DNA of 63,849 nt, filler included, from Ferroacidibacillus organovorans (GCF_001642725.1; 6 parts of 6 records of this genome joined end to end with filler, not necessarily neighbours in it), one strand, 5' to 3'. Numbered from the whole stretch's first letter, positions 2,728-57,875 are shown. Made by a program: numbers and translations. Notes: generated by a model from the sequence alone, not told the origin.

Positions 2728-4773
2728 TTACAGGGTTTGCGTCAAACCGGCCGGAGTGGGAACGGGAATGGCTTTGTACGCGTAGTCAGATGAGAGGTTC
2801 ATATTCAGGGAGATGTCTTTTAGTTCCTTTATGACTTTTGCATTCGCACTCGCGTTGGCGCCGGGTTGTGACGCGATCAGGTTGGCTGGGATCACAATGG
2901 ACATGATCTCATTGACCGAAGAAAAGCGTGCGTTTGGCCCTTGGCCAACGACCGAGAATTGCACTTTTGCTTGCATCGTTTTGAAGATGGCCTGCATCAT
3001 CGTCTTCATCTGCGCGGCGTTTGTGGTATTGGGGAGTCCCATGCCTCCGAATTGCGACATCATGTTGTCGATAAAGGAAGTCATTTTTGTCTGGTCAATC
3101 TCCATGGTGTAGGTGTAACCGGAGGCGGTCTGCGCAGCCTGGACGTTTGTGTAAGACTGGAGACTCAGTTGCGCGAGCGAACTTCCACCGAGTGAGAAAT
3201 TATTCATGACGCTCTGTAGGTTCGTCGAACCGGGAATTGGCTGATAGCCTTTGCCGGAGTTGATATACAGTTTGTTACCGTTGATAAACTCGTGAATCGG
3301 CGTAGTAAGCGTACTCGCGCCACCCGCGCTCGCAAACGCAGGCATAGAAATCGGATCGATCTCGATAAGCGCTTTGATTTGCCCCATCACGGTCTGTAAA
3401 TTCATTTTCAGCCCCATCTTAATAGGGCTTGCAAACAGGCTCTGAACCTGCTTCAGTTGGGCGTCTTTTTGTCCTGCGGCCGTCAAATCCCAGTTGAATT
3501 TCATCGCCATTGTGCCGGTCGATTGTTCGTAGTTTGGCTTTTCAGATGCAAGTGTTGCTTGCAAGAACGCTTGCGCCGCAGGCTGGCTGATCTGCCAGCT
3601 TGCAGGAATCTGAATCGCGGTTGCGGCGGGTTGAATTCCGAGCAGTTTGAGGTGCAATGCAAAACCGATCTCGTCGCCAAGGTTCATCGTGCGCGACGGC
3701 GAAAGTGCACTAAAGAGGTGATTCTCAAGTGCCCACTCCATGGCAGAGACTTGCGGCGTTTGCAGTTTTGGGAGCGTCGCGTTGACAAGTTTGGCGGCGA
3801 TTACGGCCGCTTGCGCTTCCGTGACAGGGTCATTCACACCAAAATGCGTGGCGGTATCCGGCGCCATGAGGCCCATCGAAATGGCCTTGTTCACGTACCC
3901 CCATAGAAAAGAATGGGTTGGCACATCGACGAATGGCGATGTGCCCGCGCGATCTGGCTGAATGCCCATGATGGCGAGAAGTTCAAAGATAAATGCGCCT
4001 TTACCCTGATAATCTTTGCTCGCAGGCGCAAGTGCCTGTTCACCGAGTGATGCGAGCACCTGTTGGCCGAGTACGGTTGGGTGTACATCATTGGGTCGGA
4101 TATAGGTCGCTTCATTTCCGGCAAACGCGCCAAACGCGTTTGCGACAGGCACGTTAAACTGCAGCGCATCGCCTAGAATTATCGCGTTTTCTTGGGAGAG
4201 AAGCGTATTCGCGAGTCCGTAGAGTGTTTGCAGTTGCGGCGAGAACGGATTGTAAAGGTTGTAGAGCACGATTCGCGCATTTGGATTGAGTTTGTGAATG
4301 GTCGTGAGGATCGCGGGCAAGTTCTTGCCGAACTGAAGGATCGCTGCTTCAAACTGGGCTCCTTCGGCTGCGGTAAGTTTTGGAGTTGCAGACGTCAACA
4401 AACCGTCTTTTTCAGCGAGTTGAAGGAGATCGTTGTTTCCAGTGTCAATCGTGACGACGCTAGCGTTTTTGATCGCTTGCTGAACGCTTGCATTAGTCAA
4501 AAGTGTGAGCAAATCAGTTGACGTGGAACCTGGCACTGCAAGGTCGCTGACCTGCATGCCTTCCGCTTTTCCGATCAAATATGGATAGGCCTGCGGTGCT
4601 GGCGCGGTATTCCCGGGAACAAGATTATAGCCGAAAGGGATGGAGTCACCCAAGGCGACGAGCGTCTGTGTCGACGCAGAGGCATGCCTGCTTGCTGCAA
4701 ACGCGGCAGGGCTGATCATGGAAACGGTGAGAAAGGCAGAAGCCAATCCCAAAAGTGATTTTTTCAAGCGCAC
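2728..4773 (-). CDS. Secreted SGNH/GDSL hydrolase fused to an SLH-like domain and a long C-terminal beta-rich domain
   Basis: Signal peptide; ALGDSIPFG, GNNDL, DVHPT (SGNH blocks); PFVDVP..WGYVNKAISMGLM (SLH-like). Start moved to GTG 4773 after a GAGGAG RBS. Confidence 0.82.
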   Translation of the reverse strand: MRLKKSLLGLASAFLTVSMISPAAFAASRHASASTQTLVALGDSIPFGYNLVPGNTAPAPQAYPYLIGKAEGMQVSDLAVPGSTSTDLLTLLTNASVQQAIKNASVVTIDTGNNDLLQLAEKDGLLTSATPKLTAAEGAQFEAAILQFGKNLPAILTTIHKLNPNARIVLYNLYNPFSPQLQTLYGLANTLLSQENAIILGDALQFNVPVANAFGAFAGNEATYIRPNDVHPTVLGQQVLASLGEQALAPASKDYQGKGAFIFELLAIMGIQPDRAGTSPFVDVPTHSFLWGYVNKAISMGLMAPDTATHFGVNDPVTEAQAAVIAAKLVNATLPKLQTPQVSAMEWALENHLFSALSPSRTMNLGDEIGFALHLKLLGIQPAATAIQIPASWQISQPAAQAFLQATLASEKPNYEQSTGTMAMKFNWDLTAAGQKDAQLKQVQSLFASPIKMGLKMNLQTVMGQIKALIEIDPISMPAFASAGGASTLTTPIHEFINGNKLYINSGKGYQPIPGSTNLQSVMNNFSLGGSSLAQLSLQSYTNVQAAQTASGYTYTMEIDQTKMTSFIDNMMSQFGGMGLPNTTNAAQMKTMMQAIFKTMQAKVQFSVVGQGPNARFSSVNEIMSIVIPANLIASQPGANASANAKVIKELKDISLNMNLSSDYAYKAIPVPTPAGLTQTL

Positions 4774-5299
4774 AATACGACTCCTCTCGTGTTGAACCGT
4801 ACAGGATTTGTTGCAATGGATAGATGGAACGACCCGTGTCACTGTATGTTTGATTCGACAGGCGCATGCCAGTTCCTTTATGAAATTCTTGTAATGCATG
4901 TGTAATCTTTTGGCGGTTCGAAGCTTGGTTGGGCGAATTTTTGATCCATGGATGATAGGGTGATTGTGGCGTGTGGATGCAATGATTTCACATTTGGACT
5001 ATACTTAGGAAAATCATGCACAATTTTCTGTTGATGACGTGAGAATGAGATAGAGATGGCGGTCGGCGAGATCGGTGCGAGCAGAACAGTGACGCAGCAG
5101 AGACGGCAAGGCATGGATGATCGAGTTGAGATGATTCGCGGTTCCTTACCTTTTATAGAAGCGACCCCTGACTTATACTTTGTTATGGATGCACGTACCC
5201 CTCGAGATTTTAGAACAATATAGAGACATACAGTCCAAGGTGTATAGGTTGACAACATTTATAGTGATGAATAAAAGGATGGACTTGGAGAGGTTATGT

Positions 5300-7726
5300 G
5301 TGAGCGAGAGATTGAATGAATCCCTGTTTTCACTGTTAAATCAAATTTCAGACGCGATCATGATCACAGATTTGAAGGAAATGATTCTCTATGTCAATCC
5401 GGCATTCACCAAGATGACCGGTTATTCATTTATGGAACTCGTCCACCGCAAGCCGGAGATGCTTCAAGGTGCCGAAACGAGCAGTGAAACGCGTAAACAA
5501 ATTGCAGCGACGCTGCGCAGTGGACAGGCTTATGAGGGAGAGATTCTAAACTATCGAAAAGATGGCCGCTCGTTTTGGAACTATCTATCGATTAGTCCCA
5601 TCCGCGATCACGATAAACAGGTCATTTATTATTTATCGATTCAAAGAGATGTGAGTGTCGATCGAACGATGTTGCTTCTGCGCCACCACACGGAGTGGGA
5701 ACTCGCAGAAGTCGTGGCGCTTTACCGGGCGCTCTCCTTGACACAACAGATCCTCGGTCAACCGAACCTTGGCGTGAGTGTGATGGATCGGCTGGGGGAA
5801 CTGTGTGACCATCTTATCCAGGTGCTTCAAGTCAATTTGATTTATGTTGGGATGCTCGATCGCCAGGGGGACCGAGTGCGCTTTCTCGCTGCGCGGGGCA
5901 GGTCCCAGCACTATGTGGAAACCTTGCAGATTTCGGATGATGAAAACCTTGAAGAAGGGCAAGGACCCGCCGGGCAGTCGCTGCGCACACTCGGCACCGT
6001 TGTTGCCAATGCGAGTGACCCTTCTTTGCGATTTTGGAGGGACAACTTAGAGCGATTTGGCCTCGACAGCACGCTCGTATCTTCGGCGCGCACAGGATCT
6101 GGTCGCAAAATCTTACTGTCCTTGTATCGCTCTGCCGAACATCCGTTTATTGCAGGTGTGGAACACCTTATGGAGGCAATTACAAAGGAAATTGCGGCAT
6201 TTTTCGATCGGATTGAGACGAATGATCGATTGCAAATGATCCAGTCTTATCGCGATGCGCTGCGCACATTTCAACGGTCGCTTTTGGATATGAATGATTC
6301 TCAAGCGATCATCCAAACGATGGTGGACGTAATCGCGACGCACACGAAAGTCAGTTGTGTCGATGCCTTTACGTCGGAGATGGGGGATGAGTCGCTCCAA
6401 AGGATTCACGTTGCGGGTCCGTTGGCGCTGCATTTTCACCAATTGCCCGAACCGCATACAAAGGCGCAACTCCATCGTGATGGGTTACCACTGCCAACAC
6501 AGGTATGGATTTCCGGTCAAAAAATTGTGATTGCAAACCCCTCCCGCGATGAATCCCTTCCATCACTGTGGCGGTTGCCACCTCTCAGTGAAATGGGCGT
6601 TGTGGCGGGGTGGCCGATGATTTCACCTCACGATCATTCGGTGTTTGGGGTGATTACGATCACGGCACAGGCGAGAGACACGTTCACGCCGGAGATTGAT
6701 ACGCTGATTGAAGACATGGTTCAATCCGCGGCGCTCGCCATTGAGCGAGTAGAATCAAAGCGTGAGATGGAGCGACTTCAACAGTACCAAGAGGCGGGAT
6801 TAGAGGCGCAGCATGCGTTTCTTGCGCTTTCGAACAGCGATACGATCTATTCGCGATTTGTAGAAATCATGGTGCAAAAGACGGATTGCCTTGCGTCTTA
6901 TGTCGTTATTCCGAACGAACTTGGCGACATGAAAATTGTCGCATGGTCCGCAAAGGATGAAGGACTAGAACGGGTCCTTGCGCAATCCGCGTGTCTCAAT
7001 ACACTGACCTGCGAATCGCAGGATGGTCTTGAAAAGCGAAACAGACGCTATGACATTATGTCGTGGCCGATCCTCTTTGCAAATGACATGGCGCCTCAGT
7101 CTTTCGTCAAATTTGTATTTGCTAGGCGTGCGCGAATGACACCGATGCTTATGAACCTGCTTGAACAATTGATGGAGAGTCTAAAAAGCGCTCTACAACT
7201 GACGGAGAATCGAGAAACGCTCAACCAATGGGCGTGGCTTGATCCGTTGACGGGAATCTCGAATCGCCGCGCGCTCGATCGATTCTTAGAAAAAATGAAT
7301 GATGGAAATGAATCAGGTGCAGTCATCTACGTCGACCTGGATGACTTTAAGCCTGTCAATGATTGCTATGGCCATGAAACGGGAGATCTTGTTTTGAAAG
7401 AAATTGCCAAGCGATTGGCGAGTGGGCTCGGTAAAAATGATCTCGTTTCGCGGCTTGGCGGCGACGAATTTGTCATGATTCTCGTCGGCTTGGAGCAGCG
7501 TTCGGATCTTCTTGAGCGACTTGAGGCGCTCGACCAGTTGATTCAGAAGCCAATCGATGTGGAGGGTGTTTCGGAGCCTCTCTTTGTGCACGCGAGTATG
7601 GGCGTGGCACAGTTTATGCGTGGGCACAAATTGCCGCACGATGTGATGCGAATTGCGGATCAACAGGTGTATATCGCGAAAAACGCCAAGCAGGACAGGG
7701 CGGTCGCATGGAAAATTTCAGAGTAA
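5300..7726 (+). CDS. PAS/PAC-GAF(s)-GGDEF diguanylate cyclase
   Basis: PAS (YVNPAFTKMTGY, NYRKDGRSFWN); GAF-like repeats; DPLTGISNRR, DLDDFKPVND, RLGGDEF. Confidence 0.9.
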   Translation: MSERLNESLFSLLNQISDAIMITDLKEMILYVNPAFTKMTGYSFMELVHRKPEMLQGAETSSETRKQIAATLRSGQAYEGEILNYRKDGRSFWNYLSISPIRDHDKQVIYYLSIQRDVSVDRTMLLLRHHTEWELAEVVALYRALSLTQQILGQPNLGVSVMDRLGELCDHLIQVLQVNLIYVGMLDRQGDRVRFLAARGRSQHYVETLQISDDENLEEGQGPAGQSLRTLGTVVANASDPSLRFWRDNLERFGLDSTLVSSARTGSGRKILLSLYRSAEHPFIAGVEHLMEAITKEIAAFFDRIETNDRLQMIQSYRDALRTFQRSLLDMNDSQAIIQTMVDVIATHTKVSCVDAFTSEMGDESLQRIHVAGPLALHFHQLPEPHTKAQLHRDGLPLPTQVWISGQKIVIANPSRDESLPSLWRLPPLSEMGVVAGWPMISPHDHSVFGVITITAQARDTFTPEIDTLIEDMVQSAALAIERVESKREMERLQQYQEAGLEAQHAFLALSNSDTIYSRFVEIMVQKTDCLASYVVIPNELGDMKIVAWSAKDEGLERVLAQSACLNTLTCESQDGLEKRNRRYDIMSWPILFANDMAPQSFVKFVFARRARMTPMLMNLLEQLMESLKSALQLTENRETLNQWAWLDPLTGISNRRALDRFLEKMNDGNESGAVIYVDLDDFKPVNDCYGHETGDLVLKEIAKRLASGLGKNDLVSRLGGDEFVMILVGLEQRSDLLERLEALDQLIQKPIDVEGVSEPLFVHASMGVAQFMRGHKLPHDVMRIADQQVYIAKNAKQDRAVAWKISE

Positions 7727-24481: not shown

Positions 24482-24576
24482 GTACAGAGCGGATCGGTGG
24501 TCAATAGGGTGTATCGGTAGAGGGCGAGCAGCCTCTTGTGATATGACGAGGGGCCGACACAGACTTCCTTCGTTTC

Positions 24577-24722
24577 GGGGGCGGCGGATGTGGACAAATG
24601 TCCCGTAGTCGGACGGCTGTCACGGCGCGCCCCGCGCGGGATGTCGCGCCTCACTCGAGTCATTCGCGATGCGTAAGACTATGCGAAAGGCTATGCCCAA
24701 CCCTGTGCGAAACCCTCTGTGG
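24577..24722 (+). repeat. About 145-bp degenerate direct repeat, copy 1, with four tandem 12-bp units
   Basis: Aligns with 25991-26135. Units TGCGTAAGACTA/TGCGAAAGGCTA/TGCCCAACCCTG/TGCGAAACCCTC at 24670-24717. Confidence 0.85.
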
Positions 24723-25117
24723 ACCAATTCGGAGGAGATTTGCTTTACGGACTGTTGCGATGGGAGAACATGGCCAGAATCTACAGGAGTTGAACCAGTG
24801 AAGTTCCGTCGAGGTATCCCACTCCATCAGAGCGCATAGACGGTCACTGATTTTTCATGGAAGAATCCATATTCAACTTATATAGTCATCGACCGGAATT
24901 CGACGCAGCGCGGGTGGCTACGTGTCCTGCGCCACATCGCCGCACACGTTGGTGCGGGCGACGGTAGACCGATTTCCTCCATTCGATGCGAACGTGGGAA
25001 CGTGTTGCGGCGAAGCAAATTTGAGTGGCAATGCACCTGCGGATAACAGAATTGACTTGATGGCGAGCGGGAACGAGAGGTACAGTCGGACACAACGTTT
25101 CCGGGGGTGGATCGCCA

Positions 25118-25393
25118 TTGTGTCCGATCGCGAAGCAACTACTGGCCGAAAAACTGATTGACGATTTTTACGAGGCATACGCGCGAGGTGGCCAACAGAA
25201 GTCTCGGCCCCAAGAAGACCTGGTGGAACAGCTCAAGGCACGATTGCCAACCGATCAGCATGCATGGCTGTATCGCTGGGAAGCCGAGTGCGTCGAGACC
25301 TGTACGCACGAACTACAGCAGTTTGCCAATTTCATCGCGGACCTTCTGATGGCGACTCCTGTCCACGCAAGCGATGCAAGACGTCACGAGTAA
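25118..25393 (+). CDS. Hypothetical protein
   Basis: GGGGTGGA RBS-like; helical protein-like composition. Confidence 0.55.
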   Translation: MCPIAKQLLAEKLIDDFYEAYARGGQQKSRPQEDLVEQLKARLPTDQHAWLYRWEAECVETCTHELQQFANFIADLLMATPVHASDARRHE

Positions 25394-25420
25394 CTGTTGC
25401 GCGCTGGGGGTTGCTATGTC

Positions 25421-25642
25421 TCATGAGTACCGCCAGTTTGCGCCTTCTCGGCCATGCGATAGAGGGATAGCGTGCAAGGCGGCTTGGAAGTTTTCCACCG
25501 CCGCTTTCGACGGTTCGTTACAAGTCAGTCGGATGACGACATTCCCGCAATGGAACGTGACGGTGGTCAGGTCTCCGGGGATCGTGACCCCAACCGATGT
25601 TGGATGCGCATGGGGTTCGTCCAATTTGTCAGGCGGCTGCAT
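25421..25642 (-). CDS. Small 'NxPS' family protein, paralog 1
   Basis: GGAGGTGTCCCC-ATG; shares T.NEPS.AAVE.F..AL with 34869-35081. Confidence 0.7.
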   Translation of the reverse strand: MQPPDKLDEPHAHPTSVGVTIPGDLTTVTFHCGNVVIRLTCNEPSKAAVENFQAALHAIPLSHGREGANWRYS

Positions 25643-25990
25643 GGGGACACCTCCGCATAATCATTCGCAATATGCGGATATCCACTACCCCTCACCGGAG
25701 CGAATCGGTGGGCAACGCGGTGCAGCAGCGGAGGGCGAGCAGAATTTCTTGCGCACTGGCTTCGAGGGGGTCAGCCAGCGGGGCCTCTCTACGGGTGCCA
25801 TGTGGATCGATGTCCCGATCCGTTTTCCTCTCCGATCCGCATCGTATCGGGTATCATCCGTTCAACCGGCCCCTGGTGTTTTGTGCCAAGTTCCGTGCCT
25901 AGTTGTGTTCGGCGTTTGAGGCGACGCAAGATGAGTTATCGGCTGCGTTCTCGACGATCTTCTTGTCGGAAGCGTCACTGTGTCCGTGTG

Positions 25991-26135
25991 GGGGGCGGCG
26001 CTATGGACAAATGTCCCGCAGTCTGACGCCCGTCCCGGCGCGTCCCGCGCGGGCTGTCGGGATTCCGTCCAGACGTTCACGATGCGCAAGACTGTGCGAA
26101 AGGCTATGCCGAACCCTGTGCGCAACCCTCTGTGG
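25991..26135 (+). repeat. About 145-bp degenerate direct repeat, copy 2
   Basis: Units TGCGCAAGACTG/TGCGAAAGGCTA/TGCCGAACCCTG/TGCGCAACCCTC at 26083-26130. Confidence 0.85.
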
Positions 26136-26550
26136 GGCAAGGGGCGCTGTGATGGATCCGCCCGGAAAGTGCTGCCTCCTCTTGAGCAGTGAACGACAAG
26201 TCAAACGTCCAACCCCCTTCCAAAAATGCGCCGTAGGATCACTGCAAGCAGAGGGAGCTCATCCACGCTGAACAGAGGGAGCGAGGCGGCCTGTCCGAAT
26301 GGCCTTTGACAGGGAGGTGCGTGCCGCTGATTGATAGAGACCGCGACGATTGTGCTTGGCGTCCTCGGCACAGAGCGAGAGAGAGCGGGATTGAGAGGTC
26401 TCGGAACAGGGATGGGCATTGCGCCCACTCAGACACGTGAGGGGGACCGGGCGTCGGCGTAGGACGGAACCTCCTTGGTGGGATCGCGATACGGGAACGC
26501 AAAGAGGGTGGCTATTTGATGTGCCACCCTACCCACTATTGATTGGTATC

Positions 26551-26593
26551 ATCTTACCTTCGGGAAACGAGCCTGTGGTGCCAAACCCGTGCC
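26551..26593 (-). promoter_or_regulatory. GGCAC-repeat promoter, copy 1
   Basis: GGCAC-GGGTTT-GGCACC-N20-TAAGAT. Confidence 0.6.
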
Positions 26594-27057
26594 GACACGG
26601 AACGGAGGTAGGTGGTAGAGGACAAGGAGCGTGGATTCCGTTTCTCAGTTCCGAAGGATCAGTGATCGGGAGTAAGAAAAGAGTGACGTCCACGCGCAGC
26701 GGATTGGTGGGGCCTGGGTGCCTTTTACTGCAGAAGTAGATCATCTACGTGTATACTGATGCTGAGGTACACCGAGCAACACTCGGCCCGGTATGTTCTG
26801 CGAAGAGTGTATGTGATGGCTTGTCAGTATAAATATTCACGCTTTCAAACTCGGCCTATGCAGATTTCGGCCAGCTATGCGCAATACGATCGCAATTCAT
26901 AAGCGAGGGCGAACAAAGAGAGTTTAGATTGGTTTATTACATCGCAGGGAGAGTTACATCTTCAAAGGAAATTAGGATTTTTGAAAACAGAAAAATAGTT
27001 ACAGGCGCTGTAGTAGACTAAGTATAAGAACCGCGGATGTCAGGAGGAATTCCCGAT

Positions 27058-27843
27058 ATGATGGATGCACAGACATTGCTCCGAGCCTACGACCAAGAGT
27101 TACGCACTGACGCAGAAACCCAAAACGCGTTATCCGAGACTCACCTCGGTCTATTACGCTTGGTCACGTTCGATGGCGATCAGGGTTTCGTGACCTATCC
27201 ACACCCTGACGATGCTGAGGCGACGCAAATGCCCCAATTGGTGCCACGAGTTCTCGATCACTTCCGTGAGAAACCAACTATCAACCAGGTCGAGTGGAAG
27301 ACACGCGATCATGACGGTGTCCTCGGACTCCATCAGGCATTGGTGGGAAATGGGTTCCAGCCCGACGATCCCGAGTCGATCATGATCGGAGAAGCCAAGA
27401 TGCTTGACGTCAATGTGCAACTGCCAGCTGGAGTGACACTGCGCTGTGTGACTGAAGAAGCGGATATCCGTAGAATGACGGCGATGGAGTCGCTCGTTTT
27501 CGGAAGACCCTTGGACGACATGGCGGATGTGCTACTACGTCGACTAGCGCTTAAGGACGGAATGCAACTATGGGTAGCGGAGGCAGAAGGACAGATCGTG
27601 AGCGCAGGTCGCCTAGAACCAGTCGTCGGAACGAACTTCGCTGGAATATGGGGCGGAGCCACACTTGAATCTTGGCGCGGTCGAGGTATCTACCGAGCGC
27701 TCACCGCTACTCGGTCCCGTTCTGCTCTGGACTTGGGCAAAACACTTATTTACAGTGATTCTACTGAATACTCACGTCCAATCTTGGAGCGCTCCGGACT
27801 CGTTAAGGTCTCTACCACGACCCCATACCGTTGGTACCGATAA
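27058..27843 (+). CDS. GNAT family N-acetyltransferase
   Basis: WGGATLESWRGRGIYRAL, SRPILERSG; GGAGG RBS. Confidence 0.88.
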   Translation: MMDAQTLLRAYDQELRTDAETQNALSETHLGLLRLVTFDGDQGFVTYPHPDDAEATQMPQLVPRVLDHFREKPTINQVEWKTRDHDGVLGLHQALVGNGFQPDDPESIMIGEAKMLDVNVQLPAGVTLRCVTEEADIRRMTAMESLVFGRPLDDMADVLLRRLALKDGMQLWVAEAEGQIVSAGRLEPVVGTNFAGIWGGATLESWRGRGIYRALTATRSRSALDLGKTLIYSDSTEYSRPILERSGLVKVSTTTPYRWYR

Positions 27844-28067
27844 ACTTGACTGGCAATAAGTGCTCACAGAAGACACAATCGGTAGATACTAGGATAAATT
27901 CGAGGGCATAAACCGAGCATGCAATGAAACCTACTACTGCATGTTCATCAAGTTCGCCAGACACGCTGGTTATGTCACACATGGGCAGTAATGTTCAGAA
28001 AAACAGGATTCATTACTACTGTAGAAGAAGTTATTAGCAACAGAACAAAGTGAGAGGAGACATGAAC

Positions 28068-28454
28068 ATGTCGGCGGAATTAAGTCACACTTGTTTATTT
28101 ACGGATAGCGTACAGAGATTAGCTGACTTTTACGGCAAAATACTTGGTATTGAGCCAGTTGTGTACGGTGAAGGTTATGCCGAAGTGCAAACGTCGAAAG
28201 GTACTTTGTCATTCTACAATGTAGAAGAACAAAATGAGATGGCTCCTGGTTCGGCACAGTCAGGTCCCAATCGAGCTATGATTCTTGAGTTTCATGTATC
28301 CGATGTAGATGCTGAATATAACCGACTAGTCGGCATGGACGTTGAAGTTGTCAAAGGACTCACAACTCAGTCGTGGGGCAATCGGTCATTTTATTTTCGG
28401 GACATTGATGGTAATCTGGTAAATTTCTTTTCAAGAGTCGATGTCGGGAACTAA
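28068..28454 (+). CDS. VOC/glyoxalase/bleomycin-resistance protein
   Basis: DFYGKILG, FHVSDVDAEY, WGNRSFYFRDIDGN. Confidence 0.9.
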   Translation: MSAELSHTCLFTDSVQRLADFYGKILGIEPVVYGEGYAEVQTSKGTLSFYNVEEQNEMAPGSAQSGPNRAMILEFHVSDVDAEYNRLVGMDVEVVKGLTTQSWGNRSFYFRDIDGNLVNFFSRVDVGN

Positions 28455-28461
28455 GCAATCG

Positions 28462-28575
28462 CTTGCTGAACAAACGGGGGCAAAATTGCCTTAGCCACCG
28501 CTGAGCCGCTGGTGTATCATTATACAGGCTGGCATTGCGATGCTCCCTGAAGTATCGGGCAGGAATTCCCCATAA
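28462..28575 (+). repeat. Paired dif-like site unit A
   Basis: GCTGAACAAAC-GGGGGC ... TAGCCACCGC..CCGCTGGTGTATCATTATAC ... CCTGAAGTATC-GGGCAG-GAATTCCCCAT. Confidence 0.75.
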
Positions 28576-28964
28576 CAGATATATCTAAGTAACTGGTAAT
28601 ATTACCCTACACCTCTGATTCTTCACGCGTTCAGCTGACACTGACGGTTACAAGAGATCCACACCGACGCGATGGGGGGGCAGCTGCTTCAATTCCTGTC
28701 AGCCAAACCATATCGATATGGGAAACGCAGAGGGCACTTGAACGTTGTTAGTGTTCCTTTTCGCTGATTTGGCTGTTGGAACCGAAACCAGTCCCAGTTT
28801 ATCTGACCAGGAGCATTTCTTCGATGTCTTGCTGAAGGTACACTGTGGGATGCCACATCCGACAACCGTGAACTTTACAAGCATATGGGTACATTGAATA
28901 TAGCTCGGGTTTATGGAAGGTATTTAGTGCTTCACAATGGTTGCAATAGAGAGGGGGAGGGCTA

Positions 28965-30608
28965 GTGAAGGGGTCAGTTCAATCGAGACAGCTTGCTGTC
29001 GTAATCGGAGTTAATGATTATGGTTCGGCGCAATCGAACCTCCGCTACTGTTCGAACGACGCCGAGGCCTTCTACGAATCTCTGGTTCACTACGCATCGT
29101 ACAACTCTGAAAACATGGTTTTGTTTTCGGACGGTGAGCACCAGTGCGCCAAGAAGCCCCATTACACTGATATTCTATCTGAAGTATATAGTATGTGTAG
29201 CAATGCCACGGAGAGTGACTCGATACTGCTGTTTTTTGCGGGACACGGAACGAGAGACGATGAGGACAGTTATCTCTTAACACAGGAATTTCGACCCAAC
29301 GTTATCAGTGAATCATCAATTCCTATGCGGAAGATCAATGACTATTTTACCCAGTCTAAGGCCAAGTTCAAATTGCGCTTCTTCGATGCATGTCATTCGG
29401 GGAGAATGGGGCGTAGAGGCTTGTTGAACCCCAGTGTGGATGATGCCTTTATCATAAATGCTGAAGGATGGGCTACGCTTGCAGCATGCAAGGAGACTCA
29501 GTATGCACATGAGCACGATACAATTAAACACGGTGTATTTTCCTATTACTTGGTAAAGGGTATCTCCGGAGAAGCTTCGACAAACGGCAGGACCGTTGCG
29601 CTAGATGATCTGAAGCTCTACGTGATGAACAAGACGATCGACTTGACTAGTAAGCTTGGAATGGAACAAACTCCTGTATTCGCAGGAGAACAGTCGGGTT
29701 CATTGATAATTAGCAGAGTTCGACCGGAACAAGATACGGCTCTGCCTGTTATCTTGCTTCAGATTGAGAAATCAACGGACGAGCAGTTAGAGCCATCACC
29801 TGAGCGACCAGACGCATTGTATTCAGAGTTAAACACGCTGCTCTCAGGAGAATTCGACTCCCGTGACTACGTTGCAGCAGACCAGGAAGATAAGATGCGA
29901 CGCATATCCAGTTTAACGTCCCTAATTGACGATTGGGGAAAAAGCGGTTCAAAACGATACAACGAGACATCGAACCACGCGCAGATGCAAAGTCGATTTA
30001 CTTCGGTCGAGAAGTTACCTCTCAATCGGAATCTGGCCGAGTATTTGAGTAACAACACCAAGGTCTCGGAGGTGATTGAATGGAGGTTTTTCAACCAAAC
30101 TGTAACTCGTTATGTCAAACAGACCCAGACTGAGGTAGAGGAACGTCCGTCATTTGGAATTGGATTGTCGTCCCAAAGACAGGTTCGGAGATATCGCGAG
30201 GTCAATGTGCCTCATGAAGAAGAAGTGTTGGCCGGAATTAAAGTTCAGGATGGGTATCCCGTCACGGATAACTCTATGCTATTACAGTTCAGCAGTGACT
30301 CACATTTGGTACCTCATTGCGGTTTGGTTTCCACTCTAATTCCGAACAATTTTGGGGCATATCTTCTCTGTTACTTCGTTTGCACGAAACTTGGCAAGGA
30401 ACTTAAGGAACTATGGGACGAAGATTCGTTTAACGTGAGGCATTTCTCAGCCGTGTCGTTCAGTGAGAAATATAAAGCTGAGCTTAAAAGAGAACTTGAC
30501 CAAGTGTATTCACAGTTCCTGTCATACATCATTGAACGCACCAAAGCGAGGCAAATGAAATTATCGAGCCTTGGTGCGGTTCCTGGAACTTCCATGGTTA
30601 AACCATGA
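28965..30608 (+). CDS. Caspase-family (peptidase C14) protein with unknown C-terminal domain
   Basis: AVVIGVNDY, LRYCSNDA, FFAGHG (His), FFDACHSG (Cys), HGVFSYYL, QTP. Confidence 0.9.
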   Translation: MKGSVQSRQLAVVIGVNDYGSAQSNLRYCSNDAEAFYESLVHYASYNSENMVLFSDGEHQCAKKPHYTDILSEVYSMCSNATESDSILLFFAGHGTRDDEDSYLLTQEFRPNVISESSIPMRKINDYFTQSKAKFKLRFFDACHSGRMGRRGLLNPSVDDAFIINAEGWATLAACKETQYAHEHDTIKHGVFSYYLVKGISGEASTNGRTVALDDLKLYVMNKTIDLTSKLGMEQTPVFAGEQSGSLIISRVRPEQDTALPVILLQIEKSTDEQLEPSPERPDALYSELNTLLSGEFDSRDYVAADQEDKMRRISSLTSLIDDWGKSGSKRYNETSNHAQMQSRFTSVEKLPLNRNLAEYLSNNTKVSEVIEWRFFNQTVTRYVKQTQTEVEERPSFGIGLSSQRQVRRYREVNVPHEEEVLAGIKVQDGYPVTDNSMLLQFSSDSHLVPHCGLVSTLIPNNFGAYLLCYFVCTKLGKELKELWDEDSFNVRHFSAVSFSEKYKAELKRELDQVYSQFLSYIIERTKARQMKLSSLGAVPGTSMVKP

Positions 30609-30814
30609 TATTTCGGCTTGGAAAGCGCCTGACTCAAATCAAGATGGCTACCGAACGGTGCGTCCGGTATTTTGTTGCACGTCGCCATTTGCATCAAGCG
30701 CGACTTTCTTCGTTTCTTCTGGTCGCAGCTACGGCATTGGACAAGTAATCTTCCAAGTCGATACCACCGTGGTCTCATGGAACATCAGGAGAGAAGAGTA
30801 CAAGAAACGGAACG

Positions 30815-31240
30815 GTGAAACCATTGACTAATTGCAAAATTGTGGAGCGGGCACCGACACCAGATGAATATCGTAATCTTTGCGTTTCTGTAGGCTGGGA
30901 ATCTGTGATGAATTTTGAGGTTGCCCAAAAAGCCATTGAAAACTCTTTGTTTGCAGTTGTAGCAAGGAAGGATGATCAAACCGTAGGCATGGGTCGGATT
31001 ATAGGAGACGGTGCGATATTTTACTACGTTCAGGACATTGCTGTATCACCAAAGTATCAAAAACGTGGTATTGGGACAAAAATCCTAGACACGTTGATGG
31101 ATTATATAAAGACTCATGCCCCAGAGAAAGCATTTGTTGGTTTGTTTGCGGCAGAGGGAACTGTGCCCTTTTATGAGCAGTATGGATTTAAAGATTATTC
31201 ACCGTCGATGACAGGGATTTTCCGTGTAACGCCGATCTGA
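30815..31240 (+). CDS. GNAT family N-acetyltransferase
   Basis: VGMGRIIGDG, QDIAVSPKYQKRGIG, FYEQYGF. Confidence 0.92.
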   Translation: MKPLTNCKIVERAPTPDEYRNLCVSVGWESVMNFEVAQKAIENSLFAVVARKDDQTVGMGRIIGDGAIFYYVQDIAVSPKYQKRGIGTKILDTLMDYIKTHAPEKAFVGLFAAEGTVPFYEQYGFKDYSPSMTGIFRVTPI

Positions 31241-31253
31241 CACAAAAACTTAT

Positions 31254-31367
31254 CTTGTTGCGCATAAGGGGCGCAAATTCATGAACACTGATTGCTTGCC
31301 TGATGTATGATTATACGATGGGCAATCCTTTCGTAATCTTGCGCGATCGGGCAGCATAGTTCCATAG
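31254..31367 (+). repeat. Paired dif-like site unit B
   Basis: GTTGCGCATAAG-GGGCGC ... GTATGATTATAC ... CTTGCGCGATC-GGGCAG-CATAGTTCCAT. Confidence 0.78.
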
Positions 31368-31415
31368 CGGACATGGTATTATTTGGACAATAGTCTCTGG
31401 GAGGAACTAGCTGGC

Positions 31416-31805
31416 ATGGTAATTGAGATGACAATACAGGTTCGAGTTTCGGATTTTGAAAAAGGTCTCAACTGGTACAAAACTCTGCTTAGAAAGGAAC
31501 CTGATTTTGTTCCGCATGAAGGATTTGCAGAGTGGGAACTCATTCCTGGAAGTTGGCTACAGGTAGCCGAGGGTAACCCTACACAAGGAAACGGTCCTCT
31601 TCGTCTTGGCGTTACTGATATTGAGTCAGAGCGAGAACGGGTTATGAAGGAGCTAGGCGTTGAACTGTTTGAAGTGTATTCACGGGAGGAAGTTCCTGTT
31701 AAATGGGGTAGCTTTTCTGACCCATGGGGAAACCGTCTTGGACTTTTTGAGTATCTGGATAAAACAGAAGAAGCAAAGACCATAAAGAGAGTGCTTCAGA
31801 GATAA
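31416..31805 (+). CDS. VOC family protein
   Basis: VRVSDFEKGLNWY, LRLGVTDIE, FSDPWGNRLG. Confidence 0.88.
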   Translation: MVIEMTIQVRVSDFEKGLNWYKTLLRKEPDFVPHEGFAEWELIPGSWLQVAEGNPTQGNGPLRLGVTDIESERERVMKELGVELFEVYSREEVPVKWGSFSDPWGNRLGLFEYLDKTEEAKTIKRVLQR

Positions 31806-31810
31806 CTTTA

Positions 31811-31918
31811 CTTGTTGCACAAGGGCTTGAGCGGAAGAACTATGTAGCAGTGAAGTCGCATGATTCTACATCTCAGTGGGTCGATGCTTGTGTCGCATAG
31901 GGACAGGAATCTTCAAAA
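31811..31918 (+). repeat. Paired dif-like site unit C (degenerate)
   Basis: CTTGTTGCACAA-GGGCTT ... GCATGATTCTAC ... GTCGCATAG-GGACAG-GAATCTTCAAA. Confidence 0.55.
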
Positions 31919-32033
31919 AGCAGTGATCACAAAGGGGGAATGCTAGTTTGGAATCAATATCGTGAATTGCTCGGTAAGCGCGTAGAGTAGTCTTGCCTCA
32001 CATTGTTCGATGAATATAATGTAGATTACTTCA

Positions 32034-32540
32034 ATGGTCTCTACTGTGCGGGGTGGTCCTGTGAGTTGTCGTCTTGCGTTCTTTAGTCAAGAGTGGGAGT
32101 CGTCAGTGGGAAACTTCAAGTTACATGATTCACAAATGGTTTTCAGTTTCTTGCCGAGTAAAGCCCTTGACTTTTTCCATAATCAGGACGCTTGCTCGGT
32201 CGTTATTTTTATTGATGAAGAACCTGTCGTTTTTTTTGTCTTACACAAGTGTGGAGAGACTTCTGATTTTACCGAAAATAATACCGCGATTTTTTTGCGA
32301 TCTTTCTTGATTGACAAGAGACATCAAAGAAAAGGCTACGCAAAATTAGCGTTGGCTATTTTACCTAAGTTTATGGAAGACCATTTGCCTTATGTGGAGG
32401 AGATCGTTCTGACTGTAGATGAAAACAATTTAGCAGCAAAAAGATTATATGAAAAATCCGGATTCATACACAAAGGGAGAACTAAAGTAGGTAGAAGTGG
32501 TCTTGAACTTGGTATGCACTATTCGCTCAAGGGCAGTTAA
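32034..32540 (+). CDS. GNAT family N-acetyltransferase (possibly decaying)
   Basis: FLIDKRHQRKGYAK, LTVDENNLAAKRLYEKSGF. Confidence 0.8.
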   Translation: MVSTVRGGPVSCRLAFFSQEWESSVGNFKLHDSQMVFSFLPSKALDFFHNQDACSVVIFIDEEPVVFFVLHKCGETSDFTENNTAIFLRSFLIDKRHQRKGYAKLALAILPKFMEDHLPYVEEIVLTVDENNLAAKRLYEKSGFIHKGRTKVGRSGLELGMHYSLKGS

Positions 32541-32746
32541 TCATTTTTGGCAAGCTAATAGCCAACAGCAAATGCGGAGTGGAAATTCGTGCCATTTGAT
32601 ACTCTTCCCATTTCTCATTCTTTGATCTTCATATACTTTCATCAACAAATGGTATCGACAACCACATCCCTTTGAATCAGTCATTGATCACACGGTGCGA
32701 GTTTGCGAAGAAATCATTCCAAGTTCTTTGATTTTCTAAGAGACAT

Positions 32747-32859
32747 ATTACTGTACTACGGGTGCGTATCTGGAATAGCCACCGCAGATCCGCTGGCGTA
32801 TGATTATACATAGGGTTCGACCCAATGATCTTGCGCATACGGGCAGTTTAGTCCCATAC
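32747..32859 (+). repeat. Paired dif-like site unit D
   Basis: ACTGTACTAC-GGGTGC ... TAGCCACCGCAGATCCGCTGGCGTATGATTATAC ... CTTGCGCATAC-GGGCAG-TTTAGTCCCAT. Confidence 0.78.
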
Positions 32860-32891
32860 CGTGGAAACTATATTCAGGGAAGAAGAACACC

Positions 32892-33299
32892 ATGGACAAG
32901 GACGTAGAGACCGCCATCGTAAAGACGTTCTTCAACAAAAGGGTTCAAGATCGGATCTTGTTAGAGTTGTTTTCCTCGGATAAGCGGCGAAATCGAGGAC
33001 TTAATCGGTTGTGCCATCACTACCGACAGACTCTCCGTGAAGAATATCTGATTGAAATACCAACGCCTAATTCAGATCCCAAAGAAATTGCCGACATACT
33101 GAAGAGAAATGGTGCGGGCAAGTCATTTTATGCGATGTCATGGAATCCCGACATCGACGGAAAACATTTGTCCATTGACGAGGCTCTGGATGCGGTGACC
33201 ACGATTACCGAAATTGGACACGAACATCAATGCCATCGGGGCCTCGCTTATAGTCAATGCGTTCAATCAGCAGTTTTGCGAGTCGATTTCTCTCCTTGA
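32892..33299 (+). pseudogene. Hypothetical protein, probably 3'-truncated where it meets the recombinase gene
   Basis: About 100 natural-looking codons, then the last ~30 codons are antisense to the recombinase 3' end (95-nt overlap). Confidence 0.55.
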
Positions 33300-34698
33300 C
33301 ATCGACGCGTGCTTCCCAAGCCGATTTGAATGCATCGAACCTTTGCACCCGCAGCGCGCGCGTCAGTTCGGCGCATCCATCAAGGTGATCGCGTAGCTGA
33401 TAGATTTCGTTCTCCTTTTTCACCATCAGGGTCCTCAAACTCTCCAGTCGTGTGGTGTAGTCTTGTTTGGAGAGATCGCCCATCACGAACAGGTCCTGCA
33501 ACCGGTTCACCCCTTCTCTCAGGCGTTCGAGTTCAGCCTCCTTCGTTTGTAACAGACACTCTGACACCAGAACGGGTTCCTCGGCATCTGCAGGCATTTG
33601 GAGGAGTTCCGTTTCATATTGCCGCATACTTTCGAACACGGCGGTTTCTACAGGCTCGAGTTCAATGCCCGGATTGCCGCAGATGATCCCGTCGTTGCCC
33701 GGTCTTTGGCATTTCTTGACGAGGGTTCTGCCGTTTTCTTTCGGCTGAAACTTCAGCGAGGAACCGCACCGGCCACAATGGAGGAGACCGGAGAGAAAGT
33801 AGGTTCCGTGCCTTGAATGCTTGGGCTGAACGCGACGCCCTTCCAAGAGTTTGATGATTTGCAGATGTTCAGCCGGTGTCTTCACGGCAGGGTGTGCGTT
33901 TTCGACGATGATCCAATTTTCTCTGGGGATCACTTTGAAGGGCGCTGCCTGCCGCTTTTTATGCAGTCCACCGTTGGTCTTCCCATACACTACGCGTCCC
34001 AAGTGGACTTCGTTGATGATCAGCCGATACAGTACGCTGTCCGACCAACGTGCTCCTTTTGGAGAGGGGACAGTGCGGCGGTTGAGCTCTGCGCAGACCG
34101 CGCTGCAGGTTTCACCGCTTAAAATTTGATCTTTGATAAAACGATAGGTCTCTAATTTCGCAGGATCAATCTGCAGGCTGTGGACGTCTGCGTTGTATAC
34201 GTAGGGAAATGGGGCCGGACCGTTCGTCCAGTGGCCTAGGCGAGCGCCAATCTTCTTGCCGCGCTGGAACCGCTTCTTAATCATCCGGTACTCATACCTG
34301 GCGAACACGCCTTCGATGTCCGTCATGAGTTCTTGGTCCTCGTCGTTCAAGTCATAGACACGTGTCGGCGTGACCACGACCGTGTTGGAGCGCTTGAGAA
34401 TTTTCTCGATCCGCGCGCGGTCCTCTTTGTCGCCCCGACTGAGGCGATCATAGTCGACCACGACGACCGCATCGTAGAAGTCGTTTTCGACGTCGCTGAG
34501 CAGGCGTTTGAATTCGGGCCGGAATTCAATGCTGTCGGAACTGCCGATTTCCCGGTAGATCACATAGCGCCAAGTGTTTTGGCGAGCGAGATCGGTGAGG
34601 GCGGTTTCGTGTTTGAGCAAAACGTCTTCCTCGCCGTCCGAATCATCGCGACTCTTGCGCAGATAGATGGCCACTTCGTAGATTTTCTTGGGTTCCAT
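33205..34698 (-). CDS. Large serine recombinase (resolvase + recombinase + Zn ribbon + coiled coil)
   Basis: YLRKSR catalytic Ser; RPEF; DRLSRG; LSGLLHCGRCG; LIERIDY. Confidence 0.95.
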   Translation of the reverse strand: MEPKKIYEVAIYLRKSRDDSDGEEDVLLKHETALTDLARQNTWRYVIYREIGSSDSIEFRPEFKRLLSDVENDFYDAVVVVDYDRLSRGDKEDRARIEKILKRSNTVVVTPTRVYDLNDEDQELMTDIEGVFARYEYRMIKKRFQRGKKIGARLGHWTNGPAPFPYVYNADVHSLQIDPAKLETYRFIKDQILSGETCSAVCAELNRRTVPSPKGARWSDSVLYRLIINEVHLGRVVYGKTNGGLHKKRQAAPFKVIPRENWIIVENAHPAVKTPAEHLQIIKLLEGRRVQPKHSRHGTYFLSGLLHCGRCGSSLKFQPKENGRTLVKKCQRPGNDGIICGNPGIELEPVETAVFESMRQYETELLQMPADAEEPVLVSECLLQTKEAELERLREGVNRLQDLFVMGDLSKQDYTTRLESLRTLMVKKENEIYQLRDHLDGCAELTRALRVQRFDAFKSAWEARVDVKERNRLAKLLIERIDYKRGPDGIDVRVQFR

Positions 34699-34868
34699 GG
34701 TGGTATCACCTCGATTCGTGGCATCATGTGTTCCTTCCTTTTCAGCTTTGCTCTGGACGGTGAACGAGTCAACGGCAACGAATGGAGAGACCGCGGGAGT
34801 TAAGGCTGCGGATGAAAGGATGGGTATGGTCTTGGATCAGCCCCGAAAGAATACTCGGGGCGTCTGGT

Positions 34869-35081
34869 TCACGGGATCCAACTGGGATCGATGAGTCGCA
34901 TCATGAGTGGATACAAAGCACTACGGAAGCTTTCCACGGCGGCAGTTGAGGGCTCGTTACTGGTCACGCTTATGGTGAGTTTCCCGTGCTGAAGGACCAT
35001 TGTCTTGGCTGGACCGGGTTTGACTAGGGAGGCGGGCTCGTTGACGGGCTCGACGAACGACGCGTCTGTTGGTGAGGGCAT
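34869..35081 (-). CDS. Small 'NxPS' family protein, paralog 2, upstream of the recombinase (candidate directionality factor)
   Basis: AGGAGGTGTCCCC-ATG; GKLTISVTSNEPSTAAVESFRSAL. Confidence 0.7.
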   Translation of the reverse strand: MPSPTDASFVEPVNEPASLVKPGPAKTMVLQHGKLTISVTSNEPSTAAVESFRSALYPLMMRLIDPSWIP

Positions 35082-35166
35082 GGGGACACCTCCTGCATTT
35101 GATGTGACGGGGTCAGGGTGGACGTCGACCTAAGCGCGGGAGCAGCGATGAAATAGTGGCAAATTC

Positions 35167-35219
35167 AGCGTACAAGTTTTATGGTCGGCATGGTGCCATC
35201 ATCGTGACCGGAGCGTGCC
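35167..35219 (-). promoter_or_regulatory. GGCAC-repeat promoter, copy 2, facing the small ORF and recombinase
   Basis: GGCAC-N6-GTCAC-N6-GGCACC-N19-TACGCT. Confidence 0.55.
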
Positions 35220-35381
35220 AATAAGCCAGGCACACGTGCGCAAACTGCCGACATGCGCGCACCGACGCTGGGTGGTAGAATTATCCGTAGAACATTCAGT
35301 TTGGTGTTTCTACGGAGTGCATCTCAACGCACGCGGGCAAGCTGAGCACGTGAGAATGAATTCCAGGGAGGAAGATGCTCT

Positions 35382-35612
35382 ATGTCAAACGATGCGCAGA
35401 GCCACAAACACACCAACCGCCTGATCCACGAAAAGTCGCCTTACTTACTCCAACACGCGCACAATCCCGTCGACTGGTACCCATGGGGCCCAGAGGCGTT
35501 CCAAAAGGCCGCCCGTGAATCGAAGGCAGTATTCCTCTCCATTGGCTATTCGTAGCCCTGCGGGGCTACGAATAGCTGTATACGCTGAAAGTGGAGTAGT
35601 TTATCGACCTGT
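35382..35612 (+). CDS. yyaL: YyaL/SPATA20-family thioredoxin-domain (DUF255) protein, 5' part, interrupted by a 54-nt coding gap and cut by the contig end
   Basis: GGAGG RBS. ATG 35382 gives [57 protein letters not shown] then TAG 35553. In-frame TCG ACC TGT (S-T-C) at 35604-35612 continues the family motif IGYSTCHWC. Confidence 0.9.
35545..35606 (+). other. Candidate programmed ribosomal bypassing element (gene 60-like)
   Basis: Take-off TCG 35550-35552; TAG; 14-bp perfect stem with C(TGCG)G tetraloop; GGAG 35593-35596; landing TCG 35604-35606. Confidence 0.7.
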
Positions 35613-57707: not shown

Positions 57708-57775
57708 ATCGAGTAGGAGGGGGCGCCTAGCCCCCGACCTCTCACACCACCGTACATGCGGGTCCGCATACGGCG
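57708..57775 (-). mobile_element. Group II (IIC-type) intron 3' end, domains V-VI
   Basis: Minus strand CGCCGTATGCGGACCCGCATGTACGGTGGTGTGAGAGG (DV), then a DVI hairpin ending CTACTCGAT; cut by the contig end. Confidence 0.9.
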
Positions 57776-57875
57776 NNNNNNNNNNNNNNNNNNNNNNNNN
57801 NNNNNNNNNNNNNNNNNNNTTAATTAATTAANNNNNNNNNNNNNNNNNNNNNNNNNNNNNNNNNNNNNNNNNNNN
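57776..57875. other. Artificial contig linker
   Basis: N-TTAATTAATTAA-N. Confidence 0.99.

Follow-up and report, generated by a model that had tools for sequence, protein, structure and literature searches.

Integrons, the textbook gene-capture device, combine a tyrosine recombinase gene with a simple attachment site (attI) beside it and a following array of co-oriented single-gene cassettes, each ended by a composite site of about 60–140 bp made of two recombinase-binding modules. Crossover takes place at the 3′ module, the cargo consists of small accessory enzymes, group II introns occur at the sites and many arrays are orphans. These features are shared by the system described here from a stretch of Ferroacidibacillus organovorans DNA (GCF_001642725.1; 63,849 nt, hereafter “the window”), in which single accessory genes alternate with a repeated unit of about 110 bp that carries two dif-like sites. 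In the available text of the sources, complete integrons are nearly absent from Bacillota/Firmicutes, for a reason left open (PMC4889954, PMC9024848), and many integron cassette arrays without an integrase, attC-site clusters that have no integron-integrase (CALINs), are described in integron-bearing clades (PMC4889954).

As in integrons, an attI-like site lies next to the recombinase gene and the array is co-oriented. However, the recombinase here lacks both an integron-integrase (IntI) score and the IntI-specific insertion, whose role is treated in the available part of PMC8138268. An attC site folds as a single strand from inverted repeats, whereas the units here are unfolded and their modules direct; the recombinase is encoded in the direction of the cassettes, unlike in most integrons, and exchange is also seen at the 5′ module. 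A second comparison is offered by Acinetobacter dif (pdif) modules, for which the available portion of PMC13141974 describes Xer exchange between sites with identical 6-bp spacers and modules that each lie between two sites of inverse orientation, so that C modules alternate with D modules. Accessory-gene modules with arm-6-arm Xer-type sites, exchange apparently tied to the 6-bp spacer and two alternating module types are common to both systems. The pdif sites, however, are 28 bp long, lie on plasmids and are served by host XerC/D, whereas those described here have a 13-6-13 layout, are chromosomal, paired 80 bp apart and of two core types, have a dedicated recombinase and are all direct, every core pointing as the genes do. 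Dimer resolution by Xer/dif and the integrative elements that exploit Xer share with the present system the dif-like layout, with inverted arms around a 6-bp central region, and the closest recombinases XerC, XerD and XerA; dif is nevertheless one site at the terminus, in contrast to tens of sites per genome at gene boundaries here.

The locus is likely to be a chromosomal array of gene cassettes belonging to an integron-like capture system built from a Xer-family tyrosine recombinase and double-stranded dif-like sites. Because the recombinase scores below the cutoffs for IntI, XerC and XerD and no hairpin is conserved among the units, the system is neither an integron nor a pdif system, though working like both. 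Recombinase-driven cassette arrays are a known idea, and what is new is the clade of the recombinase, the design of the sites and the range of hosts; full-text searching, with subscription journals and supplements outside its scope, turned up no account of arrays of this kind from Alicyclobacillus, Sulfobacillus or any other Bacillota.

Organization of the cassette array

The window is a 63.8-kb joining, by N runs, of six contigs from a 98-contig, 3.03-Mb assembly of 52% GC, and the whole finding lies on one 11-kb contig, C72 (window 24482-35612); sequence beyond these 11 kb has no physical linkage to the array. Since the window joins unrelated contigs, the lack of a tyrosine recombinase within it carries no weight. 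The array (27037-33299) contains seven co-oriented open reading frames (ORFs) between units, in DNA with a GC content of 0.41-0.47 over 28001-33000 against 0.52 genome-wide, in agreement with the seven co-oriented, AT-richer accessory genes of the initial annotation. Each unit comprises a site S1, a centre and a site S2, and the array is made up as follows.

26934..26968, + strand: tentative degenerate S2-like site before the first cassette, with core-like GGGAGA at 26947-26952 and a right arm ending in TTCAAAGG; judged by eye against the S2 consensus, no profile match
27037..27843, + strand: cassette gene 1, GNAT-like acetyltransferase, 268 aa (Pfam Acetyltransf_1, E 1.6e-4, scoring 22.4 bits where the cutoff is 20.7)
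27846..27998, + strand: unit 0, a long degenerate variant, with an S1-like site at ~27846-27878 (by eye) and S2 core GGGCAG at 27983-27988
28050..28454, + strand: cassette gene 2, VOC/glyoxalase family, 134 aa (Pfam Glyoxalase, E 3.4e-17)
28459..28585, + strand: unit A, with S1 core GGGGGC at 28477-28482, centre GTATCATTATAC at 28514-28525 and S2 core GGGCAG at 28558-28563
28965..30608, + strand: cassette gene 3, caspase-domain protein, 547 aa (Pfam Peptidase_C14, E 2.4e-19), with a 390-bp gap before the gene
~30671..30793, + strand: decayed unit between the caspase and GNAT genes, with S1-like arms TTTTGTTGCAC ... ATTTGCATCAAG by eye and the core lost
30815..31240, + strand: cassette gene 4, GNAT acetyltransferase, 141 aa (Pfam Acetyltransf_10, E 1.4e-17)
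31250..31375, + strand: unit B, with S1 core GGGGCG at 31268-31273, centre at 31305-31316 and S2 core GGGCAG at 31349-31354
31383..31805, + strand: cassette gene 5, VOC-like by protein-language-model features only (no Pfam match at E<=0.01)
31806..31920, + strand: unit C, the most diverged (R1 model, E 1e-6), with S1 core GGGCTT at 31823-31828, centre GCATGATTCTAC at 31858-31869 and S2 core GGACAG at 31901-31906
32034..32540, + strand: cassette gene 6, GNAT acetyltransferase, 168 aa (Pfam Acetyltransf_1, E 7e-12)
32742..32862, + strand: unit D, with S1 core GGGTGC at 32760-32765, centre at 32798-32809 and S2 core GGGCAG at 32841-32846
32892..33299, + strand: cassette gene 7, hypothetical (no Pfam match), its 3′ part overlapping the serine recombinase gene
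33205..34698, - strand: large serine recombinase, 497 aa, which ends the array (Pfam Resolvase, Recombinase and Zn_ribbon_recom)

The Pfam calls for ORFs 1-7 are thus GNAT (weak), VOC, caspase, GNAT, none, GNAT and none. They reproduce the gene families of the initial annotation, apart from the second VOC (ORF 5), which is recognized only through the ESM Atlas, where the nearest named clusters are Glyoxalase/VOC with a score of 0.96. The four units predicted in the initial annotation (28462-28575, 31254-31367, 31811-31918 and 32747-32859) align with one another end to end, and an nhmmer profile of the four returns them at E 5e-28 to 8e-22 together with nine more matches at E<1e-3 on other contigs. 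The degenerate unit that it had placed at about 27900-28000 gives a weak profile match (C72 3423-3517, that is window 27904-27998, E 0.007-0.12). In searches with the R1 model, unit A matches at C72:3978-4096 (E 2.5e-17) and unit D is the best match of the genome (E 2.6e-18). The core positions stood to within one base, the S2 core of unit A beginning at 28558 and not at 28557. Core-to-core spacing in units A-D is 81, 81, 78 and 81 bp, so that three of the four distances first given are unchanged and the second becomes 81 from 80, the latter being a matter of the register then used. A neighbour that had been overlooked altogether is the large serine recombinase gene, which abuts the array.

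Anatomy of the unit and its sites

The anatomy of the unit was derived from 37 aligned copies, from this genome and its relatives, anchored on the cores, with a site consensus built from 34 S1 and 38 S2 sites. Within each unit S1 and S2 are direct repeats of one another, and each is palindromic with a 13-6-13 layout; the arm-6-arm, dif-like design proposed earlier therefore holds, with arms of 13 bp in place of 11. S2 reads tTnTTGCGCtttC-GGGCAG-gaaagTTCAAtAa; its dyad axis passes through the midpoint of the 6-bp core, and the left arm tTnTTGCGCtttC is the reverse complement of the right arm (tTaTTGaaCtttC) at 11 of the 13 consensus positions. The outer arms of S1 are those of S2, and its core is GGGKGC. 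A distance of 80-82 bp separates the cores in 20/26 units, and a 14-bp near-palindrome, TGyATGAwTATrCA, stands exactly midway between them (counted on unit D). In the window the centre motif GTATSATTATAC occurs exactly at 28514, 31305 and 32798 and nowhere else, with a copy carrying two mismatches at 31858; with up to two mismatches allowed it gives 14 matches against 3.9 expected, a number reached in 0/100 shuffles. The 14-nt S2 pattern alone is not above chance in the window (11 matches against 6.9 expected, with 11 reached in 7/100 shuffles), and the signal therefore resides in the unit as a whole.

No conserved secondary structure was found by RNAalifold in 23 units on either strand (0 pairs, 0 kcal), and single units fold no better than their shuffles (mean z -0.8). 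Rfam 15 gave no match at E<=1 in window 26000-34000, and at gathering score no unit of the window or of four loci was matched. The centre may be a site for an architectural protein or a promoter. The promoter-like spacer of the initial annotation is weakly supported: the pair TAGyCA-17-TATGAT is present at a fixed offset in 3/4 window units and in 6/13 full units of the genome (shuffles: mean 2.0, max 5), as against 0/10 units from relatives, and promoter-like matches over the region as a whole number 10, not above the 9.5 of shuffles.

Distribution of units

A sequence-only covariance model of the unit, used to scan genomes, found 28 copies in this genome, spread over 11 contigs and grouped in clusters or arrays. 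All 28 are intergenic, compared with 23% of random positions, and their orientation is that of the upstream ORF in 26/28 and of the downstream ORF in 22/28, the exceptions being array ends; the tie to gene boundaries that the initial annotation proposed is therefore found throughout the genome. The single genes between units encode GNATs, VOCs, APH, MFS, NUDIX, DinB, HAD, methyltransferase, isochorismatase, RidA-like, metallophosphatase and other proteins. Units were detected in 18/19 genomes of the family (E<=0.001) and in 39/64 genomes of the order (E<=1e-5), with at least 55 matches in some genomes, and complete genomes show several unit clusters together with scattered copies.

A recombinase of the kind described below, or its remnant, is present in 20/64 genomes of the order, only nine of which have a full-length uninterrupted copy. 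Units were found in 18/20 genomes with the recombinase or a remnant against 21/44 without, the genomes counted being kin and not independent and absence of the recombinase being judged at E<=1e-40.

Recombinase and attI-like site

Arrays on two other contigs of this genome, C83 and C61, and in relatives are headed by a Xer-like tyrosine recombinase with an attI-like site; the co-occurrence of such an enzyme had been envisaged in the initial annotation. The order on C83 is a Peptidase_A24 gene, a Phage_integrase ORF, a half unit (centre and S2) and then cassettes, and C61 mirrors C83. The two recombinase ORFs are 96% identical, and the DNA of the two contigs is near-identical through the region behind the gene to ...TTTCGGGCAGTT and unrelated beyond. 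The attI-like site, of S type, follows the recombinase stop at ~55-160 bp, in the Alicyclobacillus loci mostly after a stretch resembling TGGTAAAAT, and the gene of the recombinase runs in the direction of the cassettes. An S-type site followed by units is present at C83, C61 and the loci L013, L014, L016, L017, L018, L019, L020 and L022, with seven units downstream of it in A. ferrooxydans and five in A. tolerans. Intact 280-aa relatives, often in several copies, were found in Alicyclobacillus species, Sulfobacillus and Bacillota metagenome-assembled genomes (MAGs), and relatives at 56-60% identity in Trueperaceae MAGs. In searches the copies of the present genome match residues 76-280 only, their N-terminal domain not being intact.

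The best NCBIfam match of the recombinase is XerC, with scores below the equivalog thresholds of XerC (194-208 bits against 335), XerD (178-200 against 330) and XerA (176-197 against 220). The integron-integrase model TIGR02249 gives 84-112 bits, split in two stretches, against a cutoff of 265, and PRK15417 gives 44-65 against 435. The closest solved chain is XerD (1a0p, E 4e-31), while IntI4 (2a3v) matches over 65 residues only (E 1e-10). By these sequence comparisons the recombinase is Xer-like. Public annotation of 1341 relatives (90% clusters, E<=1e-40) consists only of “tyrosine-type recombinase/integrase” or “XerD”.

Several further observations concern this platform. A short recombinase remnant (90% over 30 aa) lies at G000 C8 67376-67511, distant from strong unit matches. 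The integrase-linked array of C83 (L010 878-7272) is 99% identical over 6.4 kb to contig C23 of a same-genus genome, G001 (L053 7469-13878), and other chromosomal flanks shared by the two genomes are only about 81-89% identical, which suggests that the entire platform was transferred recently or that the genomes share a mobile element. The beginning of a DUF255/thioredoxin-domain gene recurs at the far ends of arrays and at several contig ends (window 35403-35612, L008 10299-10553, L010 8451-8745, L011 1-356, L013 9309-9524 and L029 13987-14347), in copies that are 75-92% identical; it looks like the flank that the integrase-linked locus conserves at its distal end, and it causes assembly breaks. 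In the Trueperaceae MAGs (L032-L041), palindromic 13-6-13 sites with core GCGCGC (TTCTGCGTGAGAC-GCGCGC-GTCTC...) surround the recombinases (e.g. L034 11337, 12083 and 13217; L038 9649 and 11793), some just upstream of the recombinase and others downstream, 0.7-1.1 kb apart. The Trueperaceae recombinase and its sites may represent a sister system in another phylum.

Breakpoints between related arrays

Comparison of related loci places the limits of homology at the cores. Among C83, C61 and L013, a locus of genome G017 from another genus, homology stops with the final base of GGGCAG. The window's GNAT cassette (30794 to about 31270) is 90% identical to the first cassette of L013. The L013 copy starts directly after the attI GGGCAG and the window copy is the fourth, behind the decayed unit, the cassette boundary of which is placed by this alignment at 30793/30794; on the right side homology stops inside the S1 core of unit B. 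As L013 also shares with C72 a serine-recombinase block, at 93.7%, and the distal DUF255-family gene, the array of the window corresponds to an integrase-linked one whose content differs. Between C21 and contig C70 of G001, flanks of 82-89% identity enclose an MFS cassette of 1.6 kb in this genome and a 6.1-kb segment in G001, and each of the two breaks falls at an S2 core. Duplicated cassettes of A. ferrooxydans, with 100% and 95% identity, are likewise bounded at S2 cores (GGGCAG).

The shuffling of modules made of S2, gene and S1, as the initial annotation had imagined it, is represented by one exact case: C41 and contig C72 of G001 have the upstream unit in common to GGGCAG and the downstream unit in common from just past the S1 core, with one gene between them here and two genes there. 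Gene content differs between related genomes and breakpoints lie at the 6-bp cores, and none of the three outcomes that the initial annotation had named as contrary to its reading was seen. The 6.3-kb array of the window has no match in G001, which is 100% complete. Among the 42 alignment ends that fall within 400 nt of a core, 19 lie within 6 nt of it (16 at S2 and 3 at S1), where by our own arithmetic about 2% would do so if ends were uniform; blastn ends are approximate, the 19 correspond to ~14 distinct cores with some events counted from both partners, and the loci had been selected by way of the recombinase, a choice biased towards ends at attI. A gene-capture system in a Gram-positive bacterium, as first suggested, is thus supported by units that follow gene boundaries, by variable cargo and by breaks at the cores, and comparative breakpoints of this kind suggest that the cassettes are mobile.

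Proposed mechanism

A cassette consists of one accessory gene followed by a unit of ~110 bp (S1, centre, S2), and the platform at the array head of the recombinase gene, a short promoter-like stretch and the single attI-like S-type site. Dimers of the 280-aa recombinase would bind the arms, and strand exchange would take place across the 6-bp core. Exchanging pairs would share their core, S2 with S2 (attI included) and S1 with S1, a like-core rule supported by the exchange of Acinetobacter dif modules between identical 6-bp spacers, in the available text on these modules. An S2 × S2 or S1 × S1 exchange would excise a circle carrying one gene and one S1, centre and S2, and the circle could be reinserted. 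One exchange of each kind would swap the gene alone with the spacer kept; such a clean two-exchange swap would be possible because the S1 and S2 cores differ. Three considerations favour double-strand exchange of the Xer type: the dif-like layout, the absence of folding and the way in which Acinetobacter dif modules behave.

Recombinase-mediated cassette exchange with heterospecific sites (lox or FRT variants) is an engineered laboratory method. It has in common with the present system the same arms with different cores around a gene, and the swap between C41 and contig C72 of G001 has those limits; here the arrangement would be natural, incompatibility of the S1 and S2 cores being assumed. 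At about even odds, in our estimate, these arrays represent a second, independently built kind of integron in Alicyclobacillales and relatives, with an Xer-derived platform reshuffling single-gene cassettes as double-stranded DNA, heterospecific S2/S1 flanks acting as a natural cassette exchange, an architectural or promoter element midway, tens of cassettes per genome and a related Trueperaceae recombinase hinting at a wider family.

A functionally equivalent Xer-like system with unfolded dif-like sites would mean that cassette platforms have evolved repeatedly, and would contribute to explaining the turnover of accessory genes in Alicyclobacillales, some genomes of which contain at least 55 units. 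The S1-centre-S2 unit would be a computable marker for cassette genes that are invisible to current integron tools, and a compact recombinase with two natural heterospecific sites could be a genetic tool in Bacillota.

Alternative explanations

Several points weigh against a capture system driven by the dedicated recombinase, beyond the double counting and the attI bias of the alignment-end count. Both recombinase copies of this genome are broken (in-frame stop, frameshift, lost start) in comparison with the intact 280-aa L013 protein, so that the array of the window is probably static at present and orphan-like; the same-genus copy holds four stops. The only intact recombinase of one complete genome lies >100 kb from its largest unit clusters. 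Contigs of one sample (4 runs, one study) contained no excised circle or alternative junction, a result uninformative on excision or expression. The 21 of 44 genomes of the order that carry units without a recombinase detectable at E<=1e-40 include two with 32 and 43-55 units. Either arrays often outlive their recombinase, as CALINs do, or another enzyme acts, and this distribution speaks for host XerC/XerD, or a different trans-acting recombinase, driving the arrays as in pdif, with the 280-aa recombinase dispensable or unrelated. The dif-like arm-6-arm sites would suit such enzymes, other Xer-like genes are present on C10, C80 and C15 (31-35% identity), and the unit B arm GTTGCGCATAA agrees with the E. 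coli XerC arm at 10/11 positions. Against this, the dedicated recombinase stands directly upstream of the S-type site and array on two contigs here and at no fewer than ten loci of Alicyclobacillus relatives, 18 of the 20 recombinase-bearing genomes carry units, and the direct orientation of all sites differs from the inverse bounding of pdif modules in the available description. Control by host Xer is on this evidence unlikely.

A true integron or CALIN, with the units as attC sites and the recombinase as a divergent IntI, would account for the shared topology of recombinase, simple site and co-oriented cassettes with a composite end site, for a typical cargo (GNAT, VOC, APH, MFS, NUDIX) and for the many arrays without a recombinase, which resemble CALINs as available sources describe them. 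It is nonetheless highly improbable given the TIGR02249 scores, the brief IntI4 match beside that of XerD, the absence of consensus pairing on either strand of 23 units, and S1 and S2 that are direct and not inverted. The units might also be regulatory intergenic repeats spread by duplication, with a shared promoter between operators of one regulator, since two palindromes at a distance of 80 bp could serve as operators for looping and the promoter-like pair recurs in the window and genome. However, this pair is missing from the relatives' units, promoter-like matches over the region are no more numerous than in shuffles, homology breaks at the cores, a recombinase and half unit head the arrays, and one cassette is found in different contexts; a purely regulatory origin is accordingly very unlikely, although regulation and recombination by S1/S2 could coexist. 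Finally, a short repeated intergenic element with palindromic parts recalls a small non-autonomous mobile element inserted between genes, like a miniature inverted-repeat transposable element. That the units are such insertions is extremely improbable: their ends are direct repeats, with no terminal inverted repeats accompanied by target duplications, they are strictly co-oriented with the genes, and between genomes it is the gene between units that differs while the unit halves stay.

Additional observations

Cassette gene 7 was probably cut by insertion of the serine-recombinase element at about 33205, as inferred from the overlap of its 3′ part with the serine recombinase gene. This recombinase was ruled out as the enzyme of the array: it belongs to a separate mobile element that joins the array DNA at the stop codon of the serine recombinase gene, where no S site is present, and homology with the corresponding L013 block begins exactly at that stop codon. 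Large serine recombinase elements are located at array ends in the window (33205-34698, -) and at L007 6776-12365 and L008 12372-12980, and C41 holds a 5.2-kb element with three large serine recombinase genes that G001 does not have at that place. To the left of the array, the ORFs in 2.5 kb (window 24482-27036) have no Pfam match, window 24951-25619 is 78% identical to DNA beyond a serine-recombinase fragment of C59, and a possible S-like site in inverted orientation lies at window 26864-26890 (inverted repeat I1).

On C86 (L011 5205-7582, -), two tandem group II introns, with Rfam domain V at 5205-5282 and 7506-7582 and a reverse transcriptase ORF at 5302-7332, abut a unit that begins at the S1 core, recalling introns that target integron attC sites. 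A further group II intron domain is present at window 57708-57778 (-), on a contig other than C72. A group II intron considered at the right end of the L013 GNAT cassette was dropped, the segment being a longer (~150-nt) unit. Just past the short array of C61, a T-box leader (L009 9141-9406, -) precedes a class I tRNA synthetase gene. On C25 (L003 ~3220-6340), 3 kb of DNA aligns with itself at 72-74% identity in shifts that are multiples of ~66 bp; this apparent long tandem repeat contains ORFs without Pfam matches and adjoins an IS3-type transposase gene (6420-7606) and an array end.

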